NCBI RefSeq assembly: GCF_036365525.1 | Contig: NC_090387.1 | Span: forward strand, 60,932,592-60,996,591 | Direction: 5' to 3' | Source of the DNA: Heterodontus francisci | Taxonomy: Eukaryota | DNA: 64,000 nt | Part shown: piece after piece, positions 31,601 to 51,203 of the stretch | Layout: every line of letters begins with the position of its first letter | Position numbering within the stretch: the first letter of the stretch is position 1 | The notes under the pieces: model-generated | What the model was told of the DNA's origin: nothing | Database searches by the model: none | What the model saw: only the letters and a program-made list of their open reading frames with translations | Translations under genes and position numbers: made by a program

Positions 31601-31842
31601 GCACACCTGCAAGTTCCCCTCCAAGTCACACACCATTCTGACTTGAAACTATATCGCCGTTCCTTCACTGTCGCTGGGTCAAAATCCTGGAACTCCCTTC
31701 CTAACAGCACTGTGGGTGTACCTACCCCACATAGACTGCAGTGGTTCAAGATGGCAGCTCACCACTACCTTCTCGAGCAATTAGGGATGGGCAATAAATG
31801 CTGGCCTGGCCAGCGACGCCCACATCCCATGAATGAATAATT
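31601..31842 (+). mobile_element. 3' fragment of the tRNA-headed LINE family
   Basis: RRSFTVAGSKSWNSLPNSTVG and tail gcaattagggatgggcaataaatg; reverse-complement match to 33290-33530. Confidence 0.85.
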
Positions 31843-32180: not shown

Positions 32181-33286
32181 AAATGCACCTATTTGCTCCT
32201 ATTTACTTTGCCTCTTCTGGCCATATAGGATTGACTGTTGTGACTGTGAGCTACTTTTTCATATTATTTACATGATCTGACTGAAAGTTTTAAAAGTAAC
32301 TACATTCCTGGCTTTCCTCATTGACATGGTGATCTTGAAAGATAATTTAAAAATATGCAGATGATGGACTCTGCTTGGGTGCTTTGCTGGTTATACCTAG
32401 CTGTGTAAAAGTTTTAACAGGATTTGTCACACTCAAAGATCTGAATGTTGAGGGGAGAGAAGATCAGTGGCAATTATTTCATATTTTGGGGCTTGGACAT
32501 GGGAATTTACAGGCATATCAAATGTGCGAACATCCTCACCAAACAACAATTAAGCTCTGATTATTCTGGGGTTCTGTTTACTTATAGTTGTTAGACACTG
32601 CGGTCTTAATCGGATGGAATATTTTAAACAGCGGCAGATTAATAAATTGTATGTTACATGGCAAAGTATTCCTGCCATTGTAAAACAGCATATTATTTGA
32701 CTTACCATTAAAAAGCCTTGGGAGATACACTTGTTAAGTGCATTCTTCATGGCACCATGGCACACCTTTCAAAGGCATCATATTTGAAATTGTTGCAGCA
32801 CCCTTAAAGTGTCGTGTCACAGCTCCAAAACATTACTCATCCATAATGCAGAAAATCAGAATTGGCTCAAATCATCTCTGATCTGTTGTGTTGCCAATAT
32901 AATATCTGATTGACTAAGTGGAAACAAAGAAGGTGCTTTAAAGTACCAGTGAGGCATGATTATTTAGCAGAAAGAAAAACAGTCAAATCCCTCTTTTTTT
33001 TAAAATTGCTATTCATGAACTAATAGGTACAACATAAAATTGCTCAGATAATTTCTTCAAACTCTTTTCCAACGCCAGTTTCCTCCTTCATCCAGGTGAG
33101 TGCATACAACTTGAAATAACATTCATTATACAAAAAAATTGCTAAACTCATCCATTATATTGGTTAAATATAAAGATTAAAATGATGCAAGAAATTTCTC
33201 CACATATCCTTGCTTCTTTATCTGTGTTGAAAATTTCCATGTACTTAGGTTGTGGGAATCCAGCTACTGTGGGCACATTTGTCTGC

Positions 33287-36200
33287 TTTTTTTTTTATTC
33301 ATTCATGGAATGTAGGTGTCACTGGCCAGGCCAACATTTATTGCCCATCCCTAATTGCCCTTGAGAAGGTGGTGGTGAGCTGCTGCCTTGAACTGCTGCA
33401 GTCCATTTGGGGTAGGTATACCCACAGTGCTGTTAGGAAGGGAGTTCCAGGATTTTGACCCAGCAACAGTGAAGGAACACCGATATAGTTCCAAGTCAGG
33501 ATGGTGTGCGACTTGGAGGGGAACTTGCAGGTGGTGGCGTTCCCATGTATTTGCTGCTCTTGTCCTTCTAGTTGGTAGAGATCGCGGGTTTGGAAGGTGC
33601 TGTCTAAGGAGCCTTGGTGCATTGCTGCAGTGCATCTTGTAGATGGTACACGCTGCTGCCACTGTGCGTTGGTAGTACAGGGAGTAAATGTTTGTAGATG
33701 GGCTGCCAATCAAGCGGGCTCCTGGATGGTGTCGAGCTTCTTGAGTGTTGTTGGAGCTGCACCCATCCAGGCAAGTGGAGAGTATTCCTTCACACTCCTG
33801 ATTTGTGCTTTGTAGATGGTGGACAGGCTTTGGGGAGTCAGGAGATGAGTTACTCGCCTCAGGATTCCCAGCCTCTGACCTGCTCTTATAGCCACGGTAT
33901 TTATATGGCTACTCCAGTTCAGTTTCTGGTCAATGGTAGCCCCTTGGATGTTGATTGTGGGGGATTCAGCGATGGTAATGCCATTGAATGTCAAGGGGAG
34001 ATGGTTAGATTCTCTCTTGTTGGAGATGGTCATTGCCTGGCACTTGTGTGGTGCAAATGTTGCTTGCCCCTTATCAGCCCAAGCCTGGATATTGTCCAGG
34101 TCTTGCTGCATTTCTACACAGACTGCTTCAGTATCTGAGGAGTCACGAATGGTGCTGAACATTGTGCAATCATCAGCGAACATCCCCACTTCTGACCTTA
34201 TGATTGAAGGAAGGTCATTGATGCAGCAGTTCAAGATGATTGGGCCACGGACACTACCCTGATAAACTCCTGCAGTGATGTCCTGGAGCTCAGATGATTG
34301 ACCTCCAACAACCACAACCATCTTCCTTTGCGCTAGGTATGACTCCAGCCAGCAGAGGGTTTTCCCCCTGATTACCATTGACCTCAGTTTTGCTAGGGCT
34401 CCTTGTGCCATACTCAGTCAAATGCTGCCTTGATGTCAAGGGCAGTCACTCTCACCTCACCTCTTGAGTTCAGCTCTTTTGTCCATGTTTGAACCAAGGC
34501 TGTAATGAGATCAGGAGCTGAGTGGCCCTGGCGGAACCCAAACTGAGCGTCACTGAGCAGGTTATTGCTAAGCAAGTGCCACTTGATGGCACTGTTGATG
34601 ACACCTTCCATCACTTTACTGATGATTGCGAGTAGGCTGATGGTAATTGGTCGGGTTGGACTTGTCCTGCTTTTTGTGTACAGGACATACCTGGGCAATT
34701 TTCCACATTGCAGGGTAGATGCCAGTGTTGTAGCAGTACTGGGACAGCTTGGCAAGGGGCGCGGCAAGTTTTGGAGCACAGATCTTCAGTACTATTGCCA
34801 GAATATTGTCAGGGCCCATAGCTTTTGCAGTATCCAGTGCCTTCAGTCGTTTCTTGATATCATGTGGAGTGAATCGAATTGGCTGAAGTCTGGCATCTGT
34901 GATGCTGGGTACTTCAGGTGGAGGCCGAGATGGACCATCAACTCGGCACTTCTGACTGAAGATTGTTGCAAATGCTTCAGCCTTATCTTTCGCACTGATA
35001 TGCTGGGGCTCCCCCATCATTGAGGATGGGGATATTTGTGGAGCCGCCTCCTCTTGTTAGTTGTTTAATTGTCCACCACCATTCATGGCGGGATGTGGCA
35101 GGACTGCAGAGCTTAGATCTGATCTGTTGGTTATGGGATCGCTTAGCTCTGTCTATCGCATGCTGCTTACGCAGTTTGGCATGCAAGTAGTCCTGGGTTG
35201 TAGCTTCACCAGGTTGACACCTCATTTTGAGATCTGCCTGGTGCTGCTCCTGGCATGCCCTCCTGCACTCTTCATTGAACCAGGGTTGGTCTCCTGGCTT
35301 GATGGTAATGGTAGAGTGGGGGATATGCCGGGCCATGAGGTTACAGATTGTGGTCGAGTACAATTCTGCTGATGGCCCACAGTGCCTCATGGATGCCCAG
35401 TTTTGCATTGCTAGATCTGTTCGAAATCTATCCCATTTAGCACGGTGATAGTGCCACACAACACGATGGACGGTATCCTCAGTATGAAGGCGGGACTTAG
35501 TCTCCACAAGGACTGTGCGGTGGTCACTCCTACCAATACTGTCATGGACAGATGCATCTGCGGCAGGCAGATTGGTGAGGATGAGGTCAAGTATGTTTTT
35601 CCTTCGTGTTGGTTCCCCCACCACCTGCCGCAGACCCAGTCTAGCAGCTATGTCCTTTAGGGCTCAGTCAGTAGTGGTGCTACCGAGCCACTCTTGGTGA
35701 TGGACATTGAAGTCCCCCACCCAGAGTATATTTTGTGCCCTTGCCACCCTCGGTGCTTCCTCCAAGTGCTGTTCAACATGGAGGAGTACTGAGTCATCAG
35801 CTGAGGGAGGGCGGCAGGTGGTAATCAGTAGGAGGTTACCTTGCCCATGTTTGACCTGATGCCATGAGACTTCATGGGGTCCGGAGTCGATGTTGAGGAC
35901 TCCCAGGGCAACTCCCTCCCTACTGTATACCACTGTGCCACCACCTCTGCTAGGTCTGTCCTGCCGCTGGGACAGGACATACCCGGGGATGGTGATGGCA
36001 GTGGCTGGGACATTGTCTGTAAGGTATGATTCCGTGAGTATGACTATGTCAGGCTGTTGCTTGACTAGTTTGTGGGACAGCTCTCCCAACTTTGGAACAA
36101 GCCCCCAGATGTTAGTAAGGAGGACTTTGCAGGGACAACAGGGCTGGGTTTGCCGTTGTCGTTTCCGGTGCCTAGGTCGATGCCGGGTGGTCCGTCCGGT

Positions 36201-36550
36201 TTCATTCTTTTTTATTGACTTCGTAGCGGTTAGGTACAACTGAGTGGCTTGCTAGGCTATTTCAGAGGGTATGTAAGAGTTAACCACATTGCTGTGGGTC
36301 TGGAGTCACATGTAAGCCAGACCAGGTAAGGACAGCAGATTTCCTTCCCTAAAGGATATTAGTGAACCAGATGGGTTTTTACAACAATCGACAATGGTTT
36401 CATGGCCATCGTTAGACTAGCTTTTAATTCCAGATTTATTAATTAAATTCAAATTCCACCTTCTGCTGTGGTGGAATTCGAACCCATGTCCCCAGAGAAA
36501 TACCCTGGGTCTCTGGGTTACTAGCCCAGTCCACTATGCCACCGCCTACC
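33287..36550 (-). mobile_element. Single-ORF CR1-group LINE (APE-RT, no ORF1) with a tRNA-derived 5' end
   Basis: EN motifs TNIWGL, PDIVILTESYL, GGGTVVY, GDFNVHH, SDH. RT motifs AMGPDNI, QFGFRQGHS, LDIKAAFD, QGSV, FADD. A-rich 3' end; A and B boxes at the 5' end. Frameshifted copy. Confidence 0.9.
36473..36541 (-). promoter_or_regulatory. Pol III type-2 internal promoter (A box 36531-36541, B box 36473-36484)
   Basis: On the - strand TGGCATAGTGG fits TRGCNNARYGG, and GGTTCGAATTCC fits the B box with one mismatch; spacing is tRNA-like. Confidence 0.8.
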
Positions 36551-36878
36551 TCTGATGCTTATGTATTTGAGAAAGAGGGAAAGATCAATCAAAGAGTTAT
36601 AGTTCTTAACCTGCTGTTGTGAAACTACAGTTACAAGAGCATACTGTGGCAACCGATTAAAAATTTAAAAAAATACCAACTAAATGGAAAGTGATAAGGG
36701 AATGAAAAAGCATTTTATACTGTTTAAGCCATTAACTGAAAGTATTCTCAGTTGAGTTTGATCTTTTGGTATCACTGTGAGAGATTGATGATTGCATATG
36801 AGGGTGGGAAGTGCTGTGAATGAGATACCCAAATGCTGACCTTGGATGTTGAGACTGGAGTCAGTTAGGTCCTATTAA

Positions 36879-37859: not shown

Positions 37860-38130
37860 TAGATGTTGATCAGCGGAGACACCAGAGGTTTTAAAGTCAG
37901 ATCCCACTTTGACAAGTTGTGAAATTGAATTCAATAAGTGTGGTGATTTATGGGCCAGTACTAGGAAAAAATTACCATGAAAGCTCATTTTTTAAAAAAA
38001 GCAACTGGCTCACTAATTTCCTCTACCTGGTCTGGCCTAAATGTGACTCCACTCCTTAACCATGTGGTTAACTCTTCATGCCCTGAGGTCAGCTAGGATG
38101 GCCCAGATCAAGAATTAAAAAAAAAAAATC
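37860..38130 (+). mobile_element. Degenerate SINE sharing its body with the 5' UTR of the tRNA-headed LINE
   Basis: ctggctcactaat, tacctggtctggcctaaatgtgactcca and atgtggttaactctt match the reverse complement of 36265-36375; ends in an A-tail. Confidence 0.7.
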
Positions 38131-46275: not shown

Positions 46276-49200
46276 AGAACATAGAACATAGAACAGTACA
46301 GGTCCTTCGGCCCACGATGTTGTGCCGAACCTTTAACCTACTCTAAGATCAAACTAACTACCTACCCTTCATTCTACTATCATCCATGTACCTATCCAAG
46401 AGTCGCTTAAATGCCCCTAATGTATCTGCTTCTACTACTACCGCTGGCAGCGCATTCCACGCACCCACCACTCTCTGTGTAAAGAACCTACATCTGACAT
46501 CTCCCCAAAACCTTCCTCCAATCACCTTAAAATTATGCCCCCTGGTGATAGCCCTTTCCACCCTGGGAAAAAGTCTCTGGCTATCCACTCTATCTATGCC
46601 TCTCATCATCTTGTACCCCTCTATCAAGTCACCTCTCATCCTTCTTCGCTCCAATGAGAAAAGCCCCAGCTCCCTCAATCTTTCTTCGTAGGACATGCCC
46701 TCCAGTCCAGGCAGCATCCTGGTAAATCTCCTCTGCACCCACTCTAAAGCTTCCACATCCTTCCTATAATGAGGCGACCAGAACTGAACACAATATTCCA
46801 AGTGTGGTCGAACCAGGGATTTATAGAGCTGCAGCATAACCTCGCGGCTCTTAAACTCAATCCCCTTGTTAATGAAAGCCAACACACCATACGCCTTGTT
46901 AACAACCCTATCAACTTGGGTGGCAACTTTGAGCGATCTATGGACATGGACCCCAAGATCCCTCTGTTCCTCCACACTACCAAGAATCTTGTCTTTAAGC
47001 CTGTATTCCGCATTCAAATTCGACCTTCCAAAATGAATCACTTCACACTTTTCCAGGTTGAACTCCATCTGCCACTTCTCAGCCCAGCTCTGCATCCTGT
47101 CAATGTCCCGTTGCAACCTACAACAGCCTTCCACACTATCCACAACTCCAGCAACCTTCGTGTCATCGGCAAACTTGCTAACCCAGCCTTCCACTTCCTC
47201 ATCCAAGTCATTTATAAAAATCACAAAGAGCAGAGGTCCCAGAACAGATCCCTGCGGAACACCACTGGTCACCGAGCTCCAGGCTGAATACTTTCCATCT
47301 ACTACCACCCTCTGTCTTCTATGGGCCAGCCAATTCTGTATCGAGACAGCCAACTCTCCCTGTATCCCATGCCTCCTTACTTTCTGAATGAGCCTACCAT
47401 GGGGAACCTTATCAAACGCCTTGCTAAAATCCATATACACCACATCCACTGCTCTTCCTTCATCAACGTGTTTTGTCACATCTTCAAAGAATTCAATAAG
47501 GCTTGTGAGGCATGACCTGCCCCTCACAAAGCCATGCTGACTGTCTCTAATCAAACTATGCTTTTCCAAATAATCATAAATCCTGTCTCTCAGAATCCTC
47601 TCCAATAATTTGCCCACTACGGACGTAAGACTGACTGGTCTATAATTCCCAGGGTTATCCCTATTCCCTTTCTTGAACAAGGGAGCAGCATTTGCCACCC
47701 TCCAATCATCTGGCACTACTCCAGTGGACAGTGAAGACGCAAAGATCATCGCCAAAGGCGCAGCAATCTCTTCCCTCGCTTCCCGTAATATCCTTGGGTA
47801 TATCCCACGGTGTGAAACAGACTGGTAAGCTCGAGGAAGTGCTCGTTAGGAGGGAAGATGTGTTGGGGTTTTTGAATAACTTGAAGATAGACAAGTCTCC
47901 CGGGCCTGACGGGGTATATCCAAGGATGTTATGGGAAGCAAGGGATGAAATTGCAGAGCCGCTGGCAATGATCTTTTCATCTTCTCTGCTGACGGGGGTG
48001 GTACCAGGTGATTGGAGGGTGGCAAATGTTGTGCCCCTGTTCAAGAAAGGGAATAGGAACAACCCTGGGAATTACAGGCCAGTTAGTCTTACTTCGGTGG
48101 TAGGCAAGTTGATGGAAAAGGTGCTGAGGGATAGGATTTCTGAGCATCTGGAAAGACACTGCTTGATTCGGGACAGTCAGCACGGTTTTGTGAGGGGTAG
48201 GTCTTGCCTCACAAGCCTGATTGAATTCTTTGAGCAGGTGACCAAGCAAGTGGATGAGGGTAAACCAGTGGATGTGGTGTACATGGATTTTAGTAAGGCA
48301 TTTGATAAGGTCCCCCATGGTAGACTTATGGAGAAAGTCAGGAGGCATGGGATAGTGGGGAATGTGGCCAGTTGGATTAAGAATTGGCTAACTGATAGAA
48401 GGCAGAGAGTGGTCTTAGATGGTAAATACTCAGCCTGGAGCCCAGTTACCAGTGGCGTGCCGCAGGGATCAGTTCTGGGTCCTCTCCTGTTTGTGATTTT
48501 TATTAACGACTTGGATGAGGAAGTCGAAGGGTGGGTCAGTAAATTTGCAGATGATACAAAGGTTGGTGGAGTTGTGGATACCGAGGAGGGCTATTGTCGT
48601 CTGCAAAGGGACTTGGATAGGTTGCAGTGCTGGGCTGAAAAGTGGCAGATGGAGTTTAACCCTGAAAAGTGTGAGGTCGTCCATTTTGGAAGGACAAACA
48701 CGAATGCAAAATACTGGGTTAACGGTAGGGTTCTTGGGCATGTGGAGGAGCAGAGAGACCTTGGGGTCTATGTGCATAGATCGTTGAAAGTTGCAACTCA
48801 AGTGGATAGGGCTGTGAAGAAGGCATATGGGGTGTTAGCGTTCATTAGCAGAGGGATTGAATTTAAGAGCCGTGAGGTGATGATGCAGCTGTACAGGACC
48901 TTGGTAAGGCCTCATTTGGAGTACTGTGTGCAGTTATGGTCGCCTCATTTTAGGAAGGATGTGGAAGCCTTGGAGAGGGTGCAGAGGAGATTTACCAGGA
49001 TGTTGCCTGGAATGGAGAATAAGTCTTACGAGGAAAGGCTGAACATTCTAGGCCTCTTCTCATTAGAACGGAGAAGGATGAGGGGTGACATGATAGAGGT
49101 TTATAAGATGATCAGGGGAATAGATAGGGTAGACAGTCAGAAACTTTTTCCCCGGGTGGAGCAAAGCGTTACAAGGGGTCATAAATTTAAGGTGAAGGGT

Positions 49201-51203
49201 GGGAGATATAAGGGGGATGTCAGGGGAAGGTTCTTTACCCAGAGAGTGGTCGGGGCATGGAATGCCTTGCCTGGGGAAGTTGTTGAGTCAGAAACTTTAG
49301 GGACTTTCAAACGGCTTTTAGATAGGTATATGGATAAAGGAGAATGATGGGGTATAGATTAAATTGTCCTTGACAGAGGACAAAGGATCGGCACAACGTC
49401 GTGGGCCGAAGGGCCTGTTCTGTGCTGTATTTTTCTATGTTCTATGTTCTATCCCGTCTGGCCCCGGGGACTTATCTGTCCTCATATCATTCAAAATTTC
49501 CAGCACATCCTCCCTCTTAACCTCAATCTGTTGGAGCATATCAGCCTGTTCCACGCTGTCCTCACAAACGACCAGGTCCCTCTCACTAGTGAATACTGAA
49601 GCAAAGTATTCATGTAGGACCTCCCCTACCTCCTCCAACTCCAGGCACAAGTTCCCTCCACTATCCCTGATCGGCCCTACCCTCACTCTGGCCATCCTCT
49701 TGTTCCTCACATAAGTGTAGAACGCCTTGGGATTTTCCTTAATCCTACCCGCCAAGACTTTTTCATGTCCCCTTCTAGCTCTCCTAAGTCCATTCTTCAG
49801 TTCCTTCCTGGCTACCTTGTAACCCTCTAGAGCCCTGTCTGATCCTTACTTCCTTCTTCCTCTTGAATAGCTGTTCCACATCTCTTGTCATCCAAGGTTC
49901 CTTCACCCTACCATCCCTTCCCTGCCTCATCGGGACAAACCTATCCAGCAGTCGCAGCAAGTGCTCCCTAAACAACCTCCACATTTCTGTCGTGCATTTC
50001 CCTGAGAACATCTGTTCCCAATTTATGCTCCCCAGTTCCTGCCTAATAGCATTGTAATTCCCCCTCCCCCAATTAAATATTTTCCCATCCCGTCTGCTCC
50101 TGTCCCTCTCCATGACTATAGTAAAGGTCAGGGAGTTGTGATCACTATCACCGAAATGCTCTCCCACCGATAGATCTGCCACCTGGCCTGGTTCGTTGCC
50201 AAGCACCAAGTCCAACATAGTCTCCCCTCTCGTTGGCCTATCTACATATTGAGTCAGGAAACCTTCCTGGACACACCTGACAAAAACTGCTCCATCCAAA
50301 CTATTTGCACTAAGGAGGTTCCAATCAATATTAGGGAAGTTGAAGTCACCCATGACAACAACCCTGTTACTTCTGCACCTTTCCAAAATCTGCCTCCCAA
50401 TCTGTTCCTCCATGTCTCTGTTGCTATTGGGGGGTCTATAGAAAACTCCCAACAAAGTGACTGCTCCTTTCCTGTTTCTGACTTCCACCCATAATGATTC
50501 AGTAGACAAACCCTCCTCGACGACCTCCCTTTCTGCACCTGTGATACTATCCCTGATTAGCAATGCCACTCCCCCACCTCTTTTACCTCCCTCCCTATTC
50601 CTTTTGAAACATCTAAACCCCGGAACATCCAACATCCATTCTTGCCCCTGTGATATCCACGTCTCCGTATTGGCCACAACATCGTAGCTCCAAGTACTGA
50701 TCCATGCTCTAAGTTCATCACCCTTATTCCTGACACTTCTTGCGTTAAAATAGACACAGTTCAACCCATCATACTGGCTGCAACTTTGCCCTGTCAACTG
50801 TCTAACCTTCCTCGCAGACTGTCTGCACTCGGTATCTGCCTGTTCAACAGCTACCCCATCCACTGATCCGTAGCTCCGGTTCCCATCCCCCTGCCAAACT
50901 AGTTTAAACCCTCCCAAAGAGCTCTAGCAAACCTCCCGCCCAGGATATTGGTGCCCCTCCAGTTCAGATGCAACCCGTCCTTCTTGTACAGGTCCCACCT
51001 TCCCCAGAAGGTATCCGAATGATCCACATATCTGAATCCCTCCCTCCTACATCAGTTCTGTAGCCACGTGTTCAGCTGCACTCGCTCTCTGTTTCTAGCC
51101 TCACTAGCACGTGGCGCCGGTAACAATCCTGAGAATACTACTCTGCTCGTCCTGCCTTTCAGCTTCCAACCTAACTCCCTATATTCGCTTTTCAGGTCCT
51201 CAT
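46276..51203 (-). mobile_element. Young CR1 LINE (end of ORF1, EN, RT) interrupted by a nested CR1
   Basis: Open RT ORF 46358-47755 (KFADD) and EN ORF 49784-50917 (FNARS, TETW, GDFN, SDH); (catagaa)n tail; possible TSD CATTA at 46271-46275 and 51204-51208. Confidence 0.95.
47807..49449 (+). mobile_element. 5'-truncated young CR1 with uninterrupted RT ORF, 6-bp TSD
   Basis: TATCCC at 47801-47806 and 49450-49455; about 510 codons without a stop up to 49347; (ttctatg)n tail. Confidence 0.95.

Follow-up and report, generated by a model that had tools for sequence, protein, structure and literature searches.

A tRNA-headed LINE with a single reading frame and depleted T-runs in Heterodontus francisci, probably transcribed by RNA polymerase III

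The stretch of DNA analysed here (the window) comprises 64,000 nucleotides of Heterodontus francisci (assembly GCF_036365525.1, contig NC_090387.1, positions 60,932,592 to 60,996,591 of the forward strand). On its minus strand it carries a decayed copy of a long interspersed nuclear element (LINE) that belongs to a high-copy family with a single open reading frame (ORF) and a head derived from tRNA-Thr. Judged from its sequence features, the element is probably transcribed from this head, with RNA polymerase III (Pol III) as the enzyme, into a 3.3-kb RNA that would be both message and template. A form of about 400 nt, a short interspersed nuclear element (SINE), shares its two ends. The following features of the element were located in the window:

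33287..36550, minus strand: decayed full-length copy of the tRNA-headed single-ORF LINE, aligned in one piece over nearly the full span, at 90-94% identity, to 25 of 39 other copies
36465..36545, minus strand: tRNA-Thr(AGT)-like head, about 10 nt shorter after the A box than in family copies
36531..36541, minus strand: A box of a type-2 Pol III promoter, in family copies about 10 nt from the 5' end
36473..36484, minus strand: B box of a type-2 Pol III promoter, found in family copies too
36255..36464, minus strand: non-coding leader of about 210 nt, common to the SINE form, with no match recognised to a described SINE body
36240..36265, minus strand: predicted hairpin at the leader end (fold of copy L038; codon counts)
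36252..36254, minus strand: in-frame UAG immediately before the long ORF (window frame; family codon counts)
33351..36251, minus strand: single ORF of about 970 codons, broken in the window copy, with a basic N-terminal arm, APE endonuclease, reverse transcriptase (RT) and C-terminal region
35510..36113, minus strand: APE-type endonuclease domain, approximate limits (domain match)
33974..34659, minus strand: RT domain, approximate limits (domain match)
33287..33363, minus strand: 3' tail common to the SINE form, with predicted stem-loop, AATAAA and short A-tail (fold of the L038 tail; leader-to-tail joints)

A preliminary description, made from the letters of the window alone, had placed an A box and a B box at the start of the element, followed by a leader of about 230 nt and an APE-RT frame without an intervening SINE tail or an ORF1. 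Both boxes were located (36541-36531 and 36484-36473), the leader measured about 210 nt, and the remaining architecture was as described; APE and RT lie in one (broken) frame, and no space is left for an ORF1. The window copy has decayed by 4 frameshifts, 2 internal stops and the loss of about 10 nt that in other copies follow the A box. Its head was not called as a tRNA by ARAGORN. Rfam returned nothing above threshold in the window, the head appearing as a sub-threshold match to the tRNA clan (15 bits, cut-off 47). A 67-nt piece of the leader, 85% identical, was found at 38019-38084 on the plus strand.

The sense (minus) strand of 33287-36550 (3,264 nt, 20.9% T) contains no run of 4 or more T, 11 runs of 3 or more T and 16 runs of 4 or more A, in agreement with the earlier figures of zero TTTT, about 15 AAAA, about 11 TTT and about 20% T. 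On the plus strand, the AAAA-free gap extends from 33230 to 36659 and is, with 3,429 nt, the longest of the window, the runner-up having 1,083 nt. The earlier expectation of 4-5 TTTT was reproduced with a base-composition model (5.0, P=0.013), but not with dinucleotide (2.1, P=0.13) or trinucleotide models (1.1, P=0.34).

Recurrence of the junction between head and ORF, which had been proposed as a check, was assayed with a 351-nt probe across the leader-ORF join in the 6.0-Gb genome. This yielded 4,229 candidates; the 40 of them that were scored are 95-100% identical across the junction. The 39 best-scoring copies besides the window copy were all retrieved; 29 of them start within 4 nt of one base, about 10 nt before the A box, between unrelated flanks, and 25 are near-full-length copies in a single piece. 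The exact junction of young type had 3,759 matches in the genome. A looser leader-end pattern had 15,930, and 26 of the first 30 loci continue into the ORF. A second sample, independent of the junction, consisted of 20 copies retrieved from 39 matches to an RT sequence; it had originated from a supposed sister family (65% identity) that turned out to be a frameshifted copy of the same family. Eleven of these 20 copies extend to the tRNA head, nine end inside the ORF region and none has another shared 5' end. Their 3' end is fixed and the tail is common to all 20, 5' truncation is variable, and long terminal repeats (LTRs) are absent. Target-site duplications were sought in 17 copies and none was found. 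The junction thus recurs in thousands of copies at unrelated loci and is not unique to the window; this is an abundant LINE family and not an accident of one locus.

Among copies chosen by eye for their intact appearance, ARAGORN called tRNA-Thr(AGT) in 11 of 14 from the LINE and in 4 of 8 from the SINE form. Folding of a consensus of 79 heads yielded no structure, and hence no support from covariation. In old copies, non-CpG differences were counted as 5/99 in the B box, 93/536 in the spacer between the boxes, 8/72 in the A box and 290/3,154 in the leader, which is only suggestive of a conservation of the promoter boxes.

For analysis of T-runs by shuffling of synonymous codons, the natural copy L034 was employed, the frame of which is open over 990 codons from an AUG and matches Pfam PF03372, PF14529 and PF00078 (endonuclease and RT) above cut-off. 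Such a codon-shuffled control had been proposed for TTTT. The zero count of TTTT alone gave P values of 0.07-0.13, whereas the depletion of shorter and interrupted runs was strong: in L034, TT was found 86 times vs 105.5 expected, overlapping TTT 5 vs 16.6, and TVTTT/TTTVT 0 vs 4.4. No depletion was seen for AAA, CCC, GGG or AATAAA, nor for pyrimidine tracts or splice-like words; avoidance of splice sites or of pyrimidine tracts does not account for the effect. Two further copies agreed with these results, the three copies being relatives and not independent tests; TTT stood at 5 vs 14-17 expected across the shuffled copies. Third-position T was used before a T-starting codon in 7 of 57 cases (0.12), compared with 0.29 before A or C. 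Over 3,270 family columns there were no 4 adjacent columns with T as the commonest letter, and each internal T4 run of a single copy occurred in one or two copies, as private change or CpG decay.

Other LINEs, including the second copy and the CR1 pieces of the window, were used for comparison:

31604..31823, plus strand: second copy of the family, 5'-truncated, with the family 3' end, 92% identical to copy L038
47807-49449 (plus strand), 46778-47791 (minus strand), 49838-50683 (minus strand): ordinary CR1-type LINE pieces used as controls

The absence of sense TTTT from the second copy, noted earlier for 31601-31842, and the many sense TTTT of the CR1 at 47807-49449 were both confirmed (zero and 10 T4 runs, respectively). 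CR1 pieces with 24-27% T contain 3-6 T4 per kb, compared with 0.12 per kb in young copies of the tRNA-headed LINE (overlapping loci are partly double-counted). Two other LINE families of the same genome with 21% T, L1/Tx1-like by their motifs, contain 12-13 and 5 T4 runs and are not depleted. Members of these two families (L180-L209, e.g. L206-L208, L204 and L209) have open frames of 1,252 and 1,136 codons and many near-identical copies; both families are young and probably recently active. Among 104 related ORFs of at least 600 amino acids, taken from 160 loci, the observed/expected ratio of TTT ranged from 0.76 to 1.19, compared with 0.35 in the tRNA-headed LINE. The comparison with other families, also proposed in the preliminary description, thus revealed depletion in this family and not in the others. 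As far as these sequences go, the depletion is strong and specific both to T-runs and to this LINE family.

Shared non-CpG variants of the endonuclease fell at third codon positions in 28 of 42 cases, which indicates selection on the encoded protein in the source elements. Of the 20 columns with conserved Phe, 14 are kept, within the homologue range of 10-20, and a loss of conserved Phe is therefore not evident; the overall Phe content is the lowest of 40 proteins. The start of the frame is unusual. TAG stands directly before the long ORF in 59 of 86 LINE copies and another codon in the remaining 27. The UAG is located two codons past an AUG inside the predicted leader-end hairpin, and this AUG-sense-UAG frame is present in most copies; in the window copy the hairpin AUG is mutated. 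After the UAG the ORF has no AUG until past the endonuclease, the next in-frame Met being downstream of that domain. Homologues start with Met followed by a basic arm, and the likeness of this arm to the one encoded right after the UAG indicates that the latter is probably translated. An out-of-frame AUG lies 47 nt downstream in 77 of 86 copies, where no canonical slippery site was recognised by eye. The 27 stop-less copies do not form subfamilies (distances within and between the classes are all about 0.05-0.07), and the same site varies in SINE copies at a similar rate. The UAG was therefore taken as the source state, and stop-less copies as the true source elements were not supported. Where T stands in CCTA context, as at window position 36254, 7.4% of copies deviate, mostly towards G, against 3.1% for T overall; the T of the stop codon differs in about 20% of copies, and CCTA sites resemble an unusual mutation hot spot.

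The SINE form consists of the head of the LINE, the leader and the tail, with about 2.9 kb missing. The leader end joined to the last ~75 nt of the LINE had 4,695 exact matches in the genome (control pattern, 0), and joints skipping 2,842-2,909 nt were seen in public contigs. Several junctions exist: L272/273, L276, L278, L281, L283 and L289 keep LINE-only bases past the usual break, together with longer 3' pieces. Two of these, L272/L251 and L273/L253, about 93 kb apart, are near-identical copies of one deletion derivative with a shared 3' flank, and probably represent a segmental duplication instead of two insertions. On a tree of 79 heads (58 LINE, 21 head-only) the labels need 5 changes, and one change was enough in none of 200 bootstrap trees, the bootstrap being unsettled. 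Old LINE copies (77-86% identical) have heads of old type that resemble those of old SINEs, indicating that head and ORF travelled together through several subfamilies. At least some of the SINEs evidently arose by deletion from the LINE. Two points go beyond the preliminary description: the SINEs are the LINE minus about 2.9 kb, produced via different junctions, and the UAG leaves the ORF without AUG. Of the traits of SINE2 elements, the LINE has the 5' tRNA-derived head with A and B boxes and lacks an internal terminator; short and non-coding applies to the ~400-nt form only.

T+ SINEs, which give polyadenylated Pol III transcripts, are characterised by AATAAA and, behind it, a closing T-run ahead of the A-tail. 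In the present family, young tails carry AATAAA near the 3' end. At the 3' ends of its copies (e.g. L032, L041, L042, L044, L049), the length of the T-run before the A-tail is variable, with 1 T in most copies and 4-7 T in 18 of 83. Runs of 4 or more T preceding an A-run were thus present in 18/83 tails picked by regular expression, a few of them falsely, vs 73/679 in the background (P=0.007). Such runs might represent a Pol III terminator at the end of the element, or they might have lengthened after insertion, as T-runs before an A-tail also do (PMC9599045).

Recorded protein fragments reach 60-85% identity; the two of them with a species label come from whale shark (69%) and manta ray (79%). 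Relatives of full length show 36-41% identity, and many lie on contigs of 3.2-4.4 kb; named hosts are a sponge, a brittle star and amphioxus. A FastTree analysis of RT sequences, run without labelled clade references, placed the LINE outside the CR1 clade of the host, among unnamed and invertebrate elements. Identity to the CR1s of the window is about 29-31% and ORF1 is absent; the element was thus not found to be a member of the CR1 clade. No tRNA or A-plus-B-box head was found upstream of the 104 related ORFs, many of their upstream regions being cut short, and a scan of viral contigs gave no match. DNA of the LINE is present in public runs of seven organisms. In four RNA-type runs, contigs with a 3' bias account for 29 of 30 bins; such contigs show neither start, strand, level nor polymerase. 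One contig from another organism spans the head-ORF junction. Eukaryotic LINE ORFs stand on many contigs of metagenome-assembled genomes (MAGs) in GTDB (L290-L369), a sign that these bins may contain host DNA.

Transcription by Pol III is the most economical reading of these data, in agreement with the base at which copies start, the A and B boxes, the strand-specific depletion of T-runs and the easy deletion to SINEs. TFIIIC would bind the A and B boxes, and Pol III would initiate at the first base of the element. Four T are reported to form an efficient terminator of human Pol III, with read-through being common (bioRxiv 10.1101/2025.10.17.683076). Through the choice of codons, selection may have stripped TTTT and the near-terminators TTT and TVTTT, since a transcript that ended early would make a template lacking the 3' tail. 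Pol III would then continue past the short A-tail until it meets a T-run at or beyond the end of the element. For the uncapped RNA, a non-canonical route of translation is proposed because the frame lacks an AUG, most likely by re-initiation or UAG read-through after the hairpin AUG; this is the weakest step, and the leader-end hairpin as the start route is a guess. R2 ORFs are reported to lack an initiating Met in some cases too. The endonuclease-RT would bind the 3' stem-loop, with insertion by target-primed reverse transcription. Internal deletions that retain promoter and tail would each give a ready-made SINE, and this may have happened several times. The earlier view of an autonomous LINE that had captured a tRNA promoter and was purged of terminators is partly supported, its predictions at sequence level being borne out by the junction, the loss of T-runs and the coding selection; what was captured may have been a SINE head or a bare tRNA.

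Several points weigh against transcription by Pol III. The translation of an uncapped, AUG-less frame of 3 kb is unexplained. LINEs are held to use RNA polymerase II (Pol II) (PMC5786205), and the processivity of Pol III is held to limit length (PMC10886601, PMC5786205). The RNA data consist of assembled contigs, in which no transcript start, cap state or polymerase was observed. The A box of old copies is no better kept than the leader, and zero TTTT taken alone is a weak signal. One LINE from the set of 104 ORFs, at L359:3001-5170, has 1 TTTT vs 9 expected (29% T, 678 codons). This is an unrelated, 5'-truncated invertebrate element of the CR1/L2 group without a visible head, and it probably represents animal DNA that was placed in the bin of a bacterial MAG; ORFs poor in T4 can therefore arise elsewhere, and T4 poverty is not proof. 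Young copies differ by 6-7% from one another, so that the family may be inactive now.

Alternatively, the element could be a LINE of Pol II type whose 5' untranslated region (UTR) was recruited from a SINE, the head being an internal Pol II promoter or a passenger and the T-runs having been lost through some other cause, for instance RNA stability, export or escape from silencing. LINEs are generally Pol II transcripts (PMC10886601, PMC5786205), and a 5' UTR with SINE-like sequence has been reported for the LINE Ingi-3_AC (PMC5786205); yet the copies examined here start where a Pol III transcript is expected to start, and deletion derivatives with the same head have spread as SINE-like elements. 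AATAAA near the 3' end of young copies would suit a Pol II transcript, as would the unremarkable conservation of the A box. The depletion is nevertheless limited to T-runs, sparing pyrimidine tracts, splice words, AATAAA and A-runs, and is not shared by other LINEs of the same genome; a capped Pol II message would also not be expected to be AUG-less. A Pol II LINE of this kind is considered unlikely.

A split cycle, in which Pol III makes the 3.3-kb template and the protein is derived from capped Pol II read-through transcripts or from UAG-mutated copies opened by the upstream AUG, would solve the problem of cap and AUG. With 27 of 86 copies altered at the stop codon, L034 open from an AUG, and an abundant family with 3' bias in RNA-type contigs, material for it is at hand. 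The stop-less alleles, lacking subfamilies and matched in rate by the SINEs, nevertheless point to a mutable site and not to selected sources, and the third-position bias indicates that selection maintained the ORF in the source lineages themselves. We regard this cycle as improbable. The insertion of a SINE beside a 5'-truncated LINE at the window locus, with TTTT absent by chance, would accord with the insignificance of a single copy's zero count under higher-order models, and was rejected as next to impossible in view of an identical junction that recurs thousands of times at unrelated loci and across subfamilies of both old and young age, the common start, RT-picked copies reaching the head, the lack of a SINE tail between head and ORF, and the junction bridged in another organism's contig.

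The Pol III-transcribed LINE proposed here shares with APE-type LINEs of the CR1/L2 group a single ORF for APE and RT, copies truncated at the 5' end, a lack of clear target-site duplications and a 3' stem-loop that also occurs in a SINE. It differs from them by the tRNA head with A and B boxes, the purge of T-runs and the AUG-less start. Single-ORF members of this group include eel UnaL2 and zebrafish ZfL2-2. The short form is a tRNA-derived SINE (SINE2), with tRNA head, body and LINE-type tail as in bipartite SINEs such as Bov-tA. In the published model of bipartite SINEs, the tRNA head joins after loss of the LINE's ORF, 'SINEs cannot encode a protein', bipartite derivatives come only from RTE, Ingi, Vingi and R2, and both LINEs and these derivatives are assigned to Pol II (PMC5786205). 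Here, in contrast, the head is on the coding element itself, and SINEs drop out by deletion.

Cartilaginous-fish SINEs with tRNA head and LINE-derived tail include the shark/coelacanth Deu-SINEs SacSINE1/LmeSINE1 and the V-SINE HE1 with its LINE HER1 (PMC5499810, PMC3747384). Shark SacSINE1 is a non-coding Deu-SINE (PMC5499810), and an ORF-bearing form of SacSINE1/LmeSINE1 or HE1 is not described in the accessible text of PMC5499810 and PMC3747384. Comparison of the leader by eye, without alignment, with the Deu, Meta and UCON3 domains in the supplement of PMC7245038 revealed no clear match apart from a few short Deu words, the Deu sequences used being those of hagfish and AmnSINE1. A possible identity of the SINE with SacSINE1/Deu was not borne out by eye in this comparison. 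R2 uses a host promoter at its ribosomal DNA target and release by a ribozyme, whereas the present LINE has its own promoter and is dispersed. The TRIMp3 elements Cassandra, Helenus and Ajax are likewise retrotransposons with Pol III promoters derived from small RNAs, but are of LTR type, non-coding and 0.3-1.3 kb in length (PMC10886601); autonomous partners of Pol III TRIMs are said to require Pol II (PMC10886601). No precedent for a tRNA-headed coding LINE was found in the full-text literature searched, a scope outside of which lie most subscription papers, Repbase and Dfam, so that an entry in one of these databases may exist.

On balance, and with somewhat less assurance than for the mode of transcription as such, we favour the wider view of an autonomous, Pol III-transcribed, protein-coding retrotransposon that may have spread in sharks and rays via many subfamilies, with codons rewritten against terminators and an AUG-less 3-kb frame translated from uncapped RNA via the tRNA-like head and leader, and that would be the parent of its own SINEs. 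The heads are called tRNA-Thr(AGT) by a standard tRNA finder, and thousands of copies may inflate the tRNA counts of sharks and rays. Deletion from a LINE already bearing a tRNA head would add a second way, and a simple one, in which SINEs and their unexplained middle bodies could originate. If true, the finding would break the textbook divide between coding Pol II LINEs and non-coding Pol III SINEs, and would provide a natural protein-coding Pol III unit of 3.3 kb in a vertebrate, in which cap-independent translation of a Pol III RNA could be tested directly.

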